This document shows, piece after piece, positions 1 to 6,000 of a stretch of DNA of 64,000 bases. The first letter of the stretch is position 1, and the number at the start of each line of letters is the position of its first letter. Where the stretch lies: NCBI RefSeq assembly GCF_048403405.1, contig NZ_CP183129.1; one strand, 5' to 3'. Position numbers: made by a program. The DNA is from Escherichia coli. GTDB taxonomy: Bacteria; Pseudomonadota; Gammaproteobacteria; Enterobacterales; Enterobacteriaceae.

Positions 1-3000
1 TCCCATCATGTCATTGAATTTAGACCATGAGCGATCAACCCTTGCCATATTAATGGCTTCGTCTGCTCCAAGATTTTTGGCTACGGCTTTTTTCATATCC
101 GCCGTATATGCCTTGTAGATAATATCGCTGGCTTTCTGGAGCGTATCTTTATCAACAGTGTCAGATGACGCAATAAATCGCTTTCGAAGATCGGTTCTGT
201 TTTCCCTCGCCAGGCGCAGGTCATTTGGTCCGCTGGTGATATCGTCTTTAAATTGCTGCAAGACTTTTACCGCGGCTCTATCCTGAGATTTGCCCGGGCG
301 GCTTAACACGGCAATCTGATTGTCGATAGCTTTTACCGTGTTTGAGAGATCGACAGGGGTATCCCCCATAGCGTCAATTATGCGGTTATATCGCTTTCCT
401 GCTGCCTCAATGAATTTTTGTTGCCCTTTAGTCGCAGATTCATAAAGCTGTTTATCAGAAATGCCACCCAGACCATCGCTAAATGTTCTGACTAAATTTT
501 CTCGTGCTTGTTGTTGATTCAGCCGATTCTTACCGGTTCCAAAAAAAGGAACTCTTTCGCCTAATGTCTGAGCCTGACTCTGCATAAAGGTTTTATCTTT
601 CAGCATGTCACTGGTCATTAACGGCAGATTTCTTTCCGATGCAAAGTCGACAGCAGCCTTTGCTTCAGGCGACATATCACCACGAACAGCCCTCGAAACC
701 GCACTCGCTGTATTTTCCAGCCCCTTACCAATACCACCAATGCCAGCAGAAATTACCGTTTGTAACGGATCAATATCTTCTCCACCAGCAAGGCTGGTGG
801 CTCCCTGTAGTGCTAAATCTGTAGCTGCTGATTTTCCTATGGCACCAAGCACCGTTCCAGCCCTGCCCGCTGGTGTAAACGCCAACGCATTAGCAAGAAA
901 CGAAGTCAGGTCTTGCGGTGATAAACCCGGCTTGTTCAGGGCATAATCACCTGATGGCAGAGAAACGATAGTATTCCCCTTCTCATCCTGCCTTAATGTC
1001 GCCCCCATTCCCTGAAGAATCTTTTCCTGAGACGCGTCAGAGCCGAAAAGTTGGGACCATCCAGCCTTTAGGGCATCCATGCTTAGTGAGTTCAATTCTG
1101 GGGCAGAGGCGACATTTTGCAGTCTCTCCATCTCTGAAGTCATTCGGCTTTCGCCTGTTATAGCATCGCGCATCGCAGCCCCAAGACTGGCTCCCTGTTC
1201 TGCTGAACGCTCAAGCCCCTCTCTTTGCTGAGTAGCTAACTTTGCATACCCTGACGCAAGAGAATTATCAGATGATGTATGTTGAATATTTTGAGTTGCT
1301 GATTGGGATCGGTCTATTTCATTCGTTGATGGTAGTGGATAGGCAGCATAAAAAGCCTGCTTAGCCTGCTCTACACTTTCTCCGGCTTGCGGGGCAACGA
1401 CTTCATTGAAGTATTGCTCCTGAGCCTGCGCTTTTTGTTCTGGTGCTAACGCCTGATACTGTGGAGAGGCGATAACATCTTTCCATGCTTTAGCCATTAA
1501 TCACCCCATAGTGAAGAAAAGTTACTGCTGGCTGCTGGCTGTGATACCTGCTCAGATTGCGGCAATGTCTGCGACGAAGAAGACGTTCCTCTGTCAACTG
1601 CTGAAATAACCCGCAAAGCATCATAAGCTCGACCAGAAGCAGCTTTCAGCGAATTGAACTGGTTTTCCATCTTCCGGCGCTTGGTATCAATGGTTTTTGT
1701 GGAGTCGCCAGGCTGAGGGAAATACATTTGATAATATTTTGACATTTCAGCAGGTACGATAGCTGCCCCTGTTTCCTGACGGAGTATTGCCATTATTGCG
1801 TCATTAGCATTAACAACGTATTGCTGCTCTGTTGGGCTGAGCGTTAAGTTAGCCAGCGTCCCATTACCCAAAGCATTATTAATGATCGCCACTCGCTGTG
1901 GGCTAAGCTGGTCTTTCAGTGTATCTATTGAATCAAGAGCATCCCTAACCCTGTATGCAAATCCAGCAGCTTTTTTAGCCCCTTCTGGCGACTTTTCCAT
2001 GATCTTTTGGGCTGTTGGCAAAGCTATTGGACGAAACCCATCTCCAGATATTGGCTGGTTTAGTTTTCCCTGCTCTTCACTTCCGTCTGTGTAGTATTTT
2101 GTGACAGTGCCATCATCGTTTTCTCTAACACTCATTAATTTTTTGGCGTTTGTATTAATTCCAGCCGCTGCCGCAAATGCCGCCGCCCCCTCTGGATCCG
2201 CCTTTAACATTTGAGCGTACTGATTGTAATTCTGCATTGCTGCTGTTGGTGCATATGCTGACGTTAACGCATTTGCTCGGCTAATATCCTGCCCTCTCGC
2301 CTGAAGTGCTTCGCCAGCCTGATTGCTGCGGATTGTCTCTGCCAGCCTGCCTCGCTCAATATCCCGACCTTCCATTTGATCTTTGATATTGAAATACTTC
2401 TCATGACCGAGAGAAAACAGTGCCATACTACCAGCAAGCCGCTGGAATCCCTGTGGATCATTAACATGCATTTCGGCAACAGACTCAGGAGAAATTCCCA
2501 AGCGACGCATTTCATCTTCGTTATCTGCTATGAATTTTCCAAATGCCCCAGTTCCGAGCGAAGATGCGATTTGAGCACTAGTCGCAAGATGACCAATAGA
2601 ATTTCTCTGGTCGTCATCAATAAAGCCCATCCCTTTCTGAACGCTTTCAAATTCTTCTGGATACTCAGAAATAAGACTGCGCATTTTGTTTCTGTCTCCA
2701 GACTCAAAAGCCCCGGCATATGCTTTCTGAAACTCTGATTTACGCTGTTGTTGACGTGCCTGCTGATTAATCTCAGCAACGCCTCTTAGCCCCTGTAGCG
2801 CCATTAAACCTACGTTTGGCTGCTGCTGATACTGCACAGGCTGAGGAACGGAAGAACGAGGAGCATTATCATTTTGCGGTGCCATGCTAGGCAGCCCGCC
2901 AAGTTGCCATGTCGTCATTAGAATCCAAGCCCCCCAACAAGACCAATAAGCCCACCACCAATAGCCCCGGCGACATTACCTATACCCGGAACAACGGAAC

Positions 3001-6000
3001 CAAGTTGCGCACCCGCTAAAGCGCCTGATGCCGCCCCACCAATACCACGCGCAAGACTGGATGGCTGCTGCGCCTGACCTGCACGAATAGCGCCAAGCCC
3101 CTGCAAGAGTTGTCCGGTATTATTGGCGTAGTTTTGCCCTGCTGTTGCCTGCCCTGATGCCGCATTCATCCCGACATTTAGCAGGTTTCCATAATTTTGC
3201 ATTTGCCCACTAAGCCAATTGTTATAAAGCATGGGCGCAATGGAAGATAACTGGTTACTGGTAGCTGTTGAGCCAAGCCCCCCGGTAGCTTCTGCTGAGA
3301 CAAGGTTCTGATAACGGGCCTGATCTGCCTGTGTTTTATATAAACCAGAACCAAAGAAATCATTCGCGGCTTTATTCTGCCCTTCCAGAGTCATCAGTCC
3401 TTGCAGTTGTTGTAAAGCAGGCAATCCGACTTCTGCATACGGCTTGAGATTATTCATCACCGTATTCCACTGCTCGCGCTGCAAATCAATTGCCTGCTGC
3501 TGGGCCTTCGCCTGGGCTTTAGAGGCACCACCATCACCGCCTTTTTCGTATACGGCACGATTGAGATGTTTATGAGCTATATGGGTAATTAACATTCGCT
3601 GAGTTCCTTATATTGTTGCCGTGTTAACTGATAAAGCGTTACGCCGACGGGTTTACCACATCTGATATATGCATCGGCCAGGTGACCAACACGGGTAGCG
3701 CCAAGCAAACGGATAATTGCCCGTCCGTATTTCGTGGTGTCAGGAACCATGGTGATGCTGTTAAGGAATGGTGAGTTTTCGAGAAGCCATTTGCAGAACA
3801 ATCGATGCCCTTGCAGTGCATATTCACCACGGAATCCGGGGTCGTACACCGCATGGCATTCAACAATGCTATGCCAGAAGTTACGCACTTCATGAACGCC
3901 TGTCAGCACTAATCCTTCGTAGATGCCGAGATATACCGCATCAGGCTTGATGTAGTACGTGTGCCCCGGCTCAACAATATTTTCGGTATTGCCAGGCTCG
4001 TTAAGAAAGGCCTGTAATCGCACCGGGTTATCAATAAATTTTAGTTCCATGCGGTGCCATCCGTTTTCACATACAGCCTGCCAGCGCCTTATCTATTAAC
4101 CCTCGTGCAATTTCATGCAGAGTTGGCGCTACTCCAATTCCTGATTTTTTACGCTGCTCTTCCTGAATTTTCTTTATCGCTTCCATTTGCTTCTCACTTA
4201 TCAATACCGGCTTTACTGAAATAGCCATAACGCCCCCTTAGAACTGTATAAAACAACAGTTATTATAGTTTCGCAAATCGCAATATTCATCATCGTAATT
4301 GCAAAATATGAAACAAATAGCACAAAAAAATGCCACCGCTCAGTAGCTGGTGGCATCGTTCTGTGTGTCAGGTTTTGACAGGTTTTTTATGGACTCTAAA
4401 AACTATATTTATGGTGTCGCATTACTCTTTACGGCAGGCGCTTTTCAGTTCTGCCCTTGCTTCTGGCTCCATTGGTAATTTGATTCGCGATCAGCTATGC
4501 GGATGGTTTGCTGAACAGGCATAACAACTTCTCAGAGGCTGTTTTTTGAACTACGAAAATTTCGTAGTGCTCACTTTCAAAAACGTCACGCCCTTGTACA
4601 CAGGATTTTACGAAAGTCTCGTAAAACACTCTCTGATGCCAGCCAGGTGTTGTGCGCATCAATTCAGTCACATTGTGTTGGTTCAAAATACCGTGTTGTT
4701 GGTTCAGTGTTGGTTCAATAAAAAGAATAAAATCCTTATAAAACAATACTCTTTACAAATTGAACCAACTGAACCAACTGAACCAACACCTTTTCTACGC
4801 ACATGAAGAAGCTCATTCTTCAGATGAGTTATAATCTCCTGGCTGGTAATTGAGTACATAAACGTTTATTTGTCGTCCCTGAATACGTGGTGATTTTCTT
4901 TGGTATCCACGACCGCTGTTTGGTGGGGTTAGCATCCCGGCTTTTTTCAACACTTCAGCAAACTGTTTTGCGTTGAAACCACATGCGATCTCCTTTTCAA
5001 ATGTGGCCGGGAATGTGTAGAAAATCATTGGGCTTTCGTCATGTTCTCCACGCTGACGGTATCCGGCTAAATCTTTGATGGGCAAATCTGCCGGGCTGTA
5101 TGGAAATGGTGCAAAACGGCTAAGCCCATAGGCATTAAGAAATGCCTCCGTTTGTTCAATAATCTGCTGATGCTCTTTGTTACCTGTGCCGAACTCGCGC
5201 AACCATGCGTTATAGCTGTGCTGTATCGCATCACGGCATGTCTGAGCATCCCAGCCTGTTACAACCTCGCCTAACAACAATGCGGCCTCCAGAATGGCAA
5301 ATCGCGCGGCTACACGGTGAACCTGCTCACCATAATCGGGTGGGATCAGGCTTCTCCATCTGCTTTCGCAATCACGAACAGTTTTAATAGCCTGTTGCTG
5401 GTGGTCTGCCAGCCATTTAATCCACTCACGCCCGGCTGCGCCATGGTGATGCTGGTAAGCGTCTTTCAGTGCGTCTGCGTGCTGTTTTCCGTTCTGGTAA
5501 TCGTGAAAGCGTACTGCTTTACTCAACGGAATATTCAGCAGTCGCACCAGTTGCCCGGCTTTGGTTTTTCGCCCGGAAGTAGCGATAAATGTTTCTAAAT
5601 CCATTTCTCCGGTGCTGATTGCCACTGTACGCCAGCGTTTTAGATCCCGGTTTCCACCATCTTTAGCGCCTTGCAGTTTCCCTACACCGTTAAATAACGC
5701 ATAGGCAGACTGTGAAACGCTGACAGGATCAGCGCCCTGACCAACTTCATCAAGCGGCATTAGTCCGTCATTGTGGGCGGCGGCCTCATTTGCCAGCCCC
5801 AGCGCGGTTCCGTACCTCGTCAGCCGCAGTAAATCAGGGTTGCCGTATAAGCTGCTCGCCACGTTTGCCGTGGTGGTCTTACCTGCGCTCGACTGCTCAT
5901 AGAAATGAATGCCGAACCCGTCAGCGCCCACCAGCCCAATCAATGGTGCTGCCAGTGCTGCGCCGATCCCGGTCATCATTGAATAGTTACCAAAGGCCAG

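Follow-up and report, generated by a model that had tools for sequence, protein, structure and literature searches.

The closest described systems to the locus reported here are the DNA ejection proteins of phage P22 and the satellite island EcCIMP1. The locus is a gene assigned to the gp7 family of ejection proteins, which lies with its partner genes in an island within a 64,000-nucleotide (nt) stretch of Escherichia coli DNA (RefSeq assembly GCF_048403405.1, contig NZ_CP183129.1); the whole stretch is called the window hereafter. In P22, about 12 copies of gp7 are present in the virion and gp7 is required for efficient loading of gp20 (PMC4992974); it is released before the DNA and is required for DNA delivery, and gp7, gp20 and gp16 are all dispensable for assembly and packaging, being needed only for delivery (PMC4992974, PMC10883804). 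A host protease removes the first 20 residues of P22 gp7 (PMC4992974); the enzyme, OpdA, leaves KGGKG as the mature N-terminus, and an amber fragment that stops at residue 154 can still be incorporated, so that residues 21-154 suffice for incorporation, for which the scaffolding protein is needed (PMC8402733). Mismatched gp16/gp20 pairs are non-functional in P22 and gp7 is interchangeable, and exclusion of the SieA type acts on gp16 and gp20 (PMC10883804). P22 gp7 has been likened to T7 gp14, an outer-membrane pore protein (PMC8954989; PMC11445570), and the P22 literature notes little recognisable similarity of P22 to T7 ejection proteins.

EcCIMP1 is a 19,963-bp phage-inducible chromosomal island (PICI) of E. 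coli MP1, mobilised by the P22-like temperate phage vB_EcoP_Kapi1 (Pick, Stadel and Raivio, ISME J 2025, PMC11773190). Its excision and circularisation occur only when Kapi1 is present, its integrase and alpA are required, and Kapi1 transduces it; its authors identified no phage-like structural genes and treated the open reading frames (ORFs) downstream of its primase as packaging candidates (PMC11773190). Some satellites supply virion proteins of their own, among them the capsid-forming PICIs (cf-PICIs), which have genes for the capsid, the portal and packaging and rely on the helper for tails only (bioRxiv 10.1101/2022.09.08.507074). In the literature searched, we found no paper on a satellite with ejection-protein genes or on an interpretation of such genes.

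A gp7-family protein with a glycine-zipper tail

The ORF listing of the window contains an ATG-started frame of 225 amino acids (aa) (Table 1), which ends in exactly the glycine-rich string quoted by a sequence-only reading made before this analysis. We assign its product with high confidence to the P22 gp7 family of ejection (E-) proteins, of which it is an ordinary member. Residues 16-223 match positions 19-229 of the 230-position Pfam model PF25688 (P22_gp7, 'Bacteriophage P22 DNA ejection protein gp7') with i-E=2.4e-72, and the protein matches PHROG 598 'DNA ejection' with E=1.2e-69. P22_gp7 was the sole family found in the Pfam-A scan even at E<=10, a threshold at which glycine-zipper membrane families such as Gly-zipper_Omp, Gly-zipper_YMGG and Rick_17kDa_Anti gave no match. 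The gene order gp14-gp7-gp20-gp16 around it is that of P22, Kapi1 and Louie. Among the functions that the sequence-only reading had listed for such tails, the phage ejection protein is the one singled out by these matches and this synteny. NCBIfam holds no model for any of the five module proteins, which explains why the RefSeq labels read 'hypothetical protein'.

The window gp7 is 99.6% identical to the EcCIMP1 copy (only one residue differs, H10Y), 57% to Kapi1 gp7 and 55% to P22 gp7, whereas five phage gp7 proteins studied before share 65-94% with one another (PMC10883804). P22 gp7, which has homologues in Sf6, HK620, CUS-3, L and APSE, is 229 aa long and encoded at the same position between genes 14 and 20, by a phage instead of a satellite island. 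The full-length match to the hidden Markov model, the KGG maturation site, the invariant ATGGLGSTA core and the glycine-zipper tail are common to both. The divergence of the window protein from phage copies is concentrated in residues 53-100 (38-40% identity) and 161-183 (30-39%), the core of residues 101-160 and the tail being better kept. T7 gp14 and gp73 of the N4-like phage DEV are likewise the small first members of three-protein ejection sets and proposed parts of an outer-membrane conduit (PMC8954989; PMC11445570), but they have no sequence similarity to the window gp7 detectable in Pfam and PDB searches, and the analogy is functional only.

Processing of the precursor can be predicted from the family alignment. 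K18-G19-G20 align on K21-G22-G23 of P22 gp7, G19 and G20 being invariant and K18 present in at least 90% of the sequences, and because this is the start of the P22 cleavage product, a propeptide of 17 residues is predicted, with a cut that would leave KGGDGG at the new N-terminus. The signals around the frame are compact: the stop of the gp14-like gene falls within codons 2-3 of the gp7 ORF (ATGTTAA, a 7-nt overlap), a Shine-Dalgarno sequence AAGGA lies 9 nt upstream of the gp7 start, and the gp7 TAA overlaps the ATG of gp20 as TAATG, an arrangement repeated at the gp20/gp16 junction. The translational coupling to both neighbours that the sequence-only reading had asserted therefore stands as far as these stop/start overlaps go, and coupling itself is plausible, being compatible with the sequence. 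A metagenome protein from ENA (341 aa), 99% identical to the window gp7, joins DUF2824 and P22_gp7 in one chain; as the two genes overlap by 7 nt, the apparent fusion most likely reflects an assembly indel.

The last 45 residues contain 16 glycines, the last 42 include no charged residue, and the tail has 17 small-xxx-small pairs, which agrees with the near-continuous run of such motifs described before. The glycines form two ladders with a period of four, G187-191-195-199 and G206-210-214-218-222, with SVVPGI between them. Of 100,000 shuffles of the tail alone, 0.9% gave two ladders of this length or longer, whereas the GxxxG count was not significant against whole-protein shuffles (1968/10,000), so that the signal of the tail lies in arrangement and conservation and not in composition. 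In a family alignment of 36 sequences, G187, G191, A192, G195, G210 and G218 are invariant; in 118 homologues the uncharged stretch at the C-terminus has a median length of 47 residues and a glycine fraction of 0.32, and P22 gp7 itself ends in a tail of the same kind. Judged from these alignments, the glycine-zipper tail is a hallmark of the gp7 family.

Close packing of helices through glycine zippers is established for channel-forming proteins. The two zippers and the conserved Pro-Gly turn between them suggest a tightly packing helical hairpin that could enter a membrane, and a membrane-inserting role of the tail is plausible from its sequence. Incorporation into the virion depends on another part of the protein, so that the tail would be free for a role after ejection. 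The best match of the family profile in the PDB, which is not significant (E=0.49), aligns profile positions 152-211 with the hydrophobic membrane-inserting tongue of hemolysin E (ClyA, 1qoy), and is a likeness of composition only.

The ejection module and its satellite island

The three partner genes belong to the P22 gene-14, gp20 and gp16 families (Table 1). Their relations to phage proteins differ from gene to gene: gp14 is 83% identical to Kapi1 gp14 and 24% to P22 gp14; gp20 finds its best phage match in the APSE phages (52%); and gp16, for which Pfam gave no match, is 67% identical to that of phage N7 and 27% to P22 gp16 over 641 aa. The gp16 gene runs past the left window end, and the full gene occupies positions 15398-17503 of locus L002 in the RefSeq record. 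Upstream of gene 14, where P22-like phages have their needle, gp10, gp4 and coat genes, there are a 53-aa ORF, iterons and a primase gene.

We hold with high confidence that the gp7 gene sits in a PICI satellite island of the EcCIMP1 type and not in a prophage. The RefSeq map and the direct repeats delimit an island of 17,955 bp, with yicC on one side and, on the other, an IS66 element adjoining yicG. It has an integrase, a regulator in the AlpA position, a primase with an adjacent origin, flanking direct repeats and a size within about 10-20 kb, all of which are features of Gram-negative PICIs. A PICI is expected to have no phage structural genes; neither the RefSeq map nor the PHROG search found capsid, portal, terminase, tail or lysis genes in the island, yet gp7, gp20 and gp16 are homologues of internal virion proteins. 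The capsid, portal and packaging genes of the cf-PICI type are thus absent, and only internal ejection proteins and an assembly factor are encoded.

EcCIMP1 has the same architecture and gene order (RefSeq record of MP1), with a PerC-family gene at the far end in both islands, and the two share 97.5% nucleotide identity over 9.3 kb. This block covers the region next to the AlpA-position gene, the primase, the 53-aa ORF, gp14, gp7 and the first 160 nt or so of gp20, and ends near window position 2760 (L002 18764), inside the 5' end of gp20. Beyond it the islands differ. The gp20 protein has 473 aa here and 439 aa in EcCIMP1, with 42% identity over the first 229 residues only, and gp16 has 701 aa here; its EcCIMP1 counterpart, of 906 aa, includes a lytic transglycosylase domain, and BLASTP gave no match between the two. 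The accessory genes are also different, and so is the insertion site: EcCIMP1 is at a tRNA-Thr near proA, whereas the window island lies between yicC and yicG with a 24-nt repeat and another integrase.

The gp20 and gp16 of EcCIMP1 are about 26% and 23% identical to those of its helper Kapi1. At the DNA level the only long stretch shared by the window island and Kapi1 is 596 nt at 81%, covering gp14 and the start of gp7; a further match of 60 nt at 85% is near the left end of the island, outside the window, and a search for a shared pac site or other shared DNA gave nothing beyond these two matches. Window positions 1328-2378, which are parts of gp20 and gp16, have 93-95% nucleotide identity to the P22-like coliphages HF4s, Gally and 683R2, and these short stretches show recent mosaic exchange with phages.

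The segment comprising the 53-aa ORF, gp14 and gp7 was present, at a segment coverage of at least 80%, in 252 of 5,426 complete E. coli genomes (about 4.6%). The closest gp7 relatives (70-88% identical) whose context was examined all lie in the same island architecture; they are from four contigs of the Citrobacter freundii complex, Pectobacterium polonicum, a second E. coli lineage and a food metagenome contig. A scan with one genome per species gave 36 loci with a gp7 relative. In 31 of them gp7 follows P22-type tail genes (gp10 and/or needle), with a coat gene also seen in 20 of the 31; three (two of Vibrio and one on a 514-bp contig) show neither kind of marker; and the two that are island-type are from an Escherichia sp., identical to that of the window, and from Buttiauxella izardii. 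As the species scan gave just these two, the island clade is documented mainly by exact-protein look-ups. In a neighbour-joining tree the gp7 proteins of E. coli, Citrobacter and Pectobacterium islands form one clade apart from prophage-borne gp7, and that of the Buttiauxella island clusters with those of Kapi1-like phages, a sign that helper genes may now and then replace island copies.

The E-module is under purifying selection. The ratios of nonsynonymous to synonymous substitution rates (dN/dS) between islands are 0.04-0.08 for gp7, 0.03-0.14 for gp14, 0.06-0.10 for gp20 and 0.08-0.10 for gp16, similar to those of the primase (0.05-0.16), all of these ratios being approximate as many dS values are saturated. 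The four genes were intact in five of the six E. coli islands inspected, and in the remaining one, of strain ABU 83972, gp16 is truncated and gp7 is shortened. Between islands the gp20/gp16 pair has been swapped as a unit, with gp7 and gp14 staying in place, in agreement with P22, where gp16 and gp20 have to correspond to each other and gp7 is interchangeable (PMC10883804).

The surroundings of the module vary. The islands of ECONIH1 and YZMc3-1 (L051, L052) have the same order of 53-aa ORF, gp14, gp7, gp20 and gp16, with the primase replaced by a DUF5906 replication protein and two small ORFs. Islands of Citrobacter and E. coli (L004-L007, L047, L048) carry genes for an SSB, a ProQ-domain protein and a 329-aa protein between the primase and the 53-aa ORF, which are absent from the island of the window.

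The 53-aa ORF was found in island-type loci only. By tblastn it is in L002, L004, L008, L010 and L034 and in none of the P22-like prophage loci, and L046-L048 have an annotated gene for 53 or 55 aa at the equivalent position. It had no match in Pfam, PHROG, NCBIfam or PADLOC, and its dN/dS is about 0.02; we regard it as a candidate for a regulator or adaptor that serves the E-module specifically in islands.

Possible roles of the module

We consider it likely that the module is a satellite-encoded ejectosome, namely the complete gp14-gp7-gp20-gp16 set of a PICI that is a satellite of P22-like podophages. Our proposal, made with moderate confidence, is that helper procapsids take up the island proteins, which then form the conduit for DNA in the particles released from the same cell. 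Once a P22-like helper has begun lytic growth, the island would excise, replicate from its primase and iteron origin and express the E-module. The 225-aa precursor would lose about 17 N-terminal residues to a host protease, giving a protein that starts with KGGDGG, and its N-terminal two thirds would load around a dozen copies into helper procapsids via the scaffolding protein, aided by a helper-compatible gp14. Upon adsorption gp7 would pass the portal and the tail channel before the DNA does and build the tail-proximal, outer-membrane part of a trans-envelope conduit, which gp20 and gp16 would extend to the cytoplasm; the conserved uncharged C-terminal hairpin of two glycine zippers would serve as a helix-packing, membrane-inserting element. 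The copy number, the OpdA cleavage, the part sufficient for incorporation, the release before the DNA and the proposed outer-membrane or tail-extension role are carried over from work on P22. The actual packaging and use of the island copies, the insertion of the tail into a membrane and the gain of the satellite are the steps that we infer.

A wider proposal is more tentative, although we take it as a real possibility: a widespread satellite lineage found in E. coli, Citrobacter, Pectobacterium and Buttiauxella may carry its own complete P22-type ejectosome, headed by the 53-aa leader ORF, whose proteins would enter helper capsids, so that the satellite and not the helper would set how DNA crosses the envelope of the recipient. 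The gain might be escape from exclusion that targets gp16 and gp20 (SieA) in helper lysogens, an attractive guess because SieA-type exclusion acts on just these two proteins, or, again as a guess, a wider range of recipients.

Several points weigh against a satellite-encoded ejectosome. E-proteins are loaded before the DNA, so that island copies could not be kept to particles filled with satellite DNA and would end up together with those of the helper. Island and helper E-proteins are only 57% (gp7), about 26% (gp20) and about 23% (gp16) identical, and mismatched gp16/gp20 pairs do not function in P22, as mentioned above. The transduction of EcCIMP1 is very low, and its authors proposed a packaging role for these genes (PMC11773190). 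With regard to expression, a terminator-like hairpin with a T-run (4332-4347, minus strand) lies between the origin region and primase operon and the E-module, and no sigma-70-like promoter was found ahead of the E-module in a promoter scan; expression therefore probably needs an activator or antiterminator.

The structural checks that the sequence-only reading had recommended for the tail did not establish a membrane role. The transmembrane check by Kyte-Doolittle hydropathy was borderline, the best 19-residue window of the 225-aa protein scoring 1.59, and the GenBank record of Kapi1 gives the DeepTMHMM result 'outside 1-225', with no transmembrane helix in this 57%-identical homologue. An AlphaFold2 monomer model made from the 36-sequence alignment had no confident fold (mean predicted local distance difference test score, pLDDT, 41.6) and showed the tail as a low-confidence coil; at this pLDDT the model is unfit for interpretation or fold search. 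The disordered linker that would have spoken against a membrane role was not seen either, as the tail is not confidently disordered and forms a terminus rather than a linker. Searches of the PDB with the sequence and with the family profile gave no significant match to any solved chain.

Among other explanations, interference with or exclusion of the helper survives best, and we still judge it unlikely. Foreign E-proteins might poison helper virions via mismatched conduits, as P22 hybrids with only foreign gp16 or only foreign gp20 assemble non-infectious particles (PMC10883804) and the island gp20 and gp16 are distant from those of Kapi1, or they might add to the superinfection immunity of Kapi1 lysogens, which EcCIMP1 raises (PMC11773190); many satellites do interfere with their helpers. 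However, Kapi1 titres after induction are unchanged by EcCIMP1 (PMC11773190), and because loading precedes packaging, poisoning would disable satellite-carrying particles too. The E-proteins are without signal peptides and thus have no evident route from the resident cell to the envelope, where incoming conduits are built, and the complete matched set including gp14 is conserved, whereas a dominant-negative role would need one component only.

The four genes could instead be an inert remnant of a P22-like prophage that recombined into the island, functionless now. The phage-like stretches of gp20 and gp16 do speak of recent exchange, and one of the six inspected islands, that of ABU 83972, has the truncated gp16 and the shortened gp7. 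We think this improbable on account of the low dN/dS (0.04-0.10) across islands of different genera, the identical gene order with the island-only 53-aa leader ORF conserved, the separate clade of island gp7 proteins from E. coli, Citrobacter and Pectobacterium, and the retention of the module when the integrase, the replication module or the accessory genes have been exchanged.

It is very improbable, in our estimation, that the genes downstream of the primase redirect or assist the packaging of island DNA into helper capsids, as was suggested for EcCIMP1. This is the location where other Gram-negative PICIs carry packaging-redirection genes (PMC11773190), and the gp14 family is annotated 'head morphogenesis' in PHROG. 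On the other hand, the P22 counterparts gp7, gp20 and gp16 play no necessary part in assembly or packaging, and PHROG, Pfam and NCBIfam searches showed no likeness to a terminase, a terminase-binding or a capsid-size factor. The other option of the sequence-only reading, a toxin or bacteriocin that forms pores on its own and is anchored in the membrane by a glycine zipper, is hardly credible, for although such tails occur in pore formers and the non-significant PDB match is to the hemolysin E tongue, the ejection-family match is full-length and highly significant, the partner genes in fixed synteny are other E-proteins, no toxin family was found in Pfam (E<=10), PHROG or NCBIfam, and the island has no recognisable gene for immunity or export (RefSeq map, PHROG).

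Known satellites take over capsids, change their size or make their own, and they redirect packaging; a full ejection set under purifying selection points to control of DNA entry as another layer of helper exploitation. If the satellite-encoded ejectosome is true, the island would be the first known case of a satellite providing proteins for DNA delivery, as distinct from capsid-size, packaging or capsid proteins. A common satellite family of E. coli carries a complete ejection-protein set that is not interpreted as such in the literature searched, and EcCIMP1 with Kapi1 is a tractable pair for direct testing. The clade of island gp7 proteins offers natural variants for probing the role of the structure-less gp7 tail, and the assignment gives the protein a better annotation than its present RefSeq label.

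Other features of the island

Table 1. Positions of the ejection-module genes and of other island features in the window.
Feature	Position	Strand	Details
gp16-family ejection protein gene, N-terminal 499 of 701 codons	1..1497	-	PHROG 770 'DNA transfer protein' E=2.1e-161
gp20-family ejection protein gene, 473 aa	1497..2918	-	PHROG 917 E=1.6e-111; Pfam Inj_translocase PF16928 E=1.1e-57
gp7-family ejection protein gene	2918..3595	-	225 aa; RefSeq WP_000909175.1, label 'hypothetical protein'
C-terminal glycine-zipper tail, residues 184-225 (GIGGAASGALAGAQLGSVVPGIGNVAGAIGGGLIGLVGGLGF)	2921..3046	-	two period-4 Gly ladders, SVVPGI between
Predicted N-terminal propeptide, residues 1-17 (MLITHIAHKHLNRAVYE)	3545..3595	-	cut expected before KGGDGG; alignment with P22 gp7
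P22 gene-14-family gene (DUF2824, 153 aa), head-morphogenesis or E-protein assembly factor	3589..4050	-	PHROG 651 E=2.2e-65; RefSeq 'DUF2824 family protein'
Conserved 53-aa ORF heading the E-module (MAISVKPVLISEKQMEAIKKIQEEQRKKSGIGVAPTLHEIARGLIDKALAGCM)	4067..4228	-	always precedes gp14 in the islands
Iteron cluster, putative replication origin	4675..4787	.	3 x GTTGGTTCA, then 3 x TGAACCAAC in opposite orientation
Primase/helicase, 919 aa (Zn-ribbon, TOPRIM, DUF927), island replication gene	4813..7572	-	PHROG 1139 DNA primase E=5.2e-178; RefSeq
Ash-family, DUF4222 and AntA/AntB antirepressor genes (regulatory region)	9532..11601	-	RefSeq; PHROG anti-repressor/regulator matches
Small helix-turn-helix (HTH) regulator, AlpA position	12045..12248	-	RefSeq 'helix-turn-helix transcriptional regulator'
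321-aa ORF between integrase and HTH gene	12363-13328	-	no PHROG or NCBIfam match
Tyrosine integrase	13424..14683	-	RefSeq; PHROG 1 E=5.6e-64; adjoins yicC
24-nt direct repeat ATTATGTACACCyyTATGTACACG, right copy, candidate attachment (att) core	14741..14764	.	left copy 3.2 kb beyond left window end

The two copies of the 24-nt repeat are at L002 12816-12839 and 30747-30770, a spacing of 17,931 nt. The iterons, found in a repeat search for direct families and inverted pairs, are six 9-nt copies with 9-nt spacing directly downstream of the primase gene, and this position suggests that the cluster is probably the replication origin of the island; related copies of ATTTTGAACCAACA are seen near the PerC end (L002 13613, 13634). 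Several small ORFs lie between the primase and the Ash/DUF4222/Ant region, and beyond gp16 there are three small ORFs and the PerC-family gene, with the IS66 element just outside the island.

The HTH gene is a putative AlpA, judged by its position and by weak Phage_AlpA matches in Pfam of the equivalent gene in the Citrobacter and Pectobacterium islands. A PADLOC search of the uncharacterised ORFs of the island gave no defence match other than a weak one of the 321-aa ORF to PDC-S31 (E=0.002). In the Citrobacter and Pectobacterium islands the corresponding position holds a gene of 277-312 aa with no family match on record, the comparison being one of size and position. Finally, many O157:H7 genomes contain 278 nt of the DUF2824 gene at 97% identity, which suggests that this gp14 type is shared with other prophages of O157:H7.

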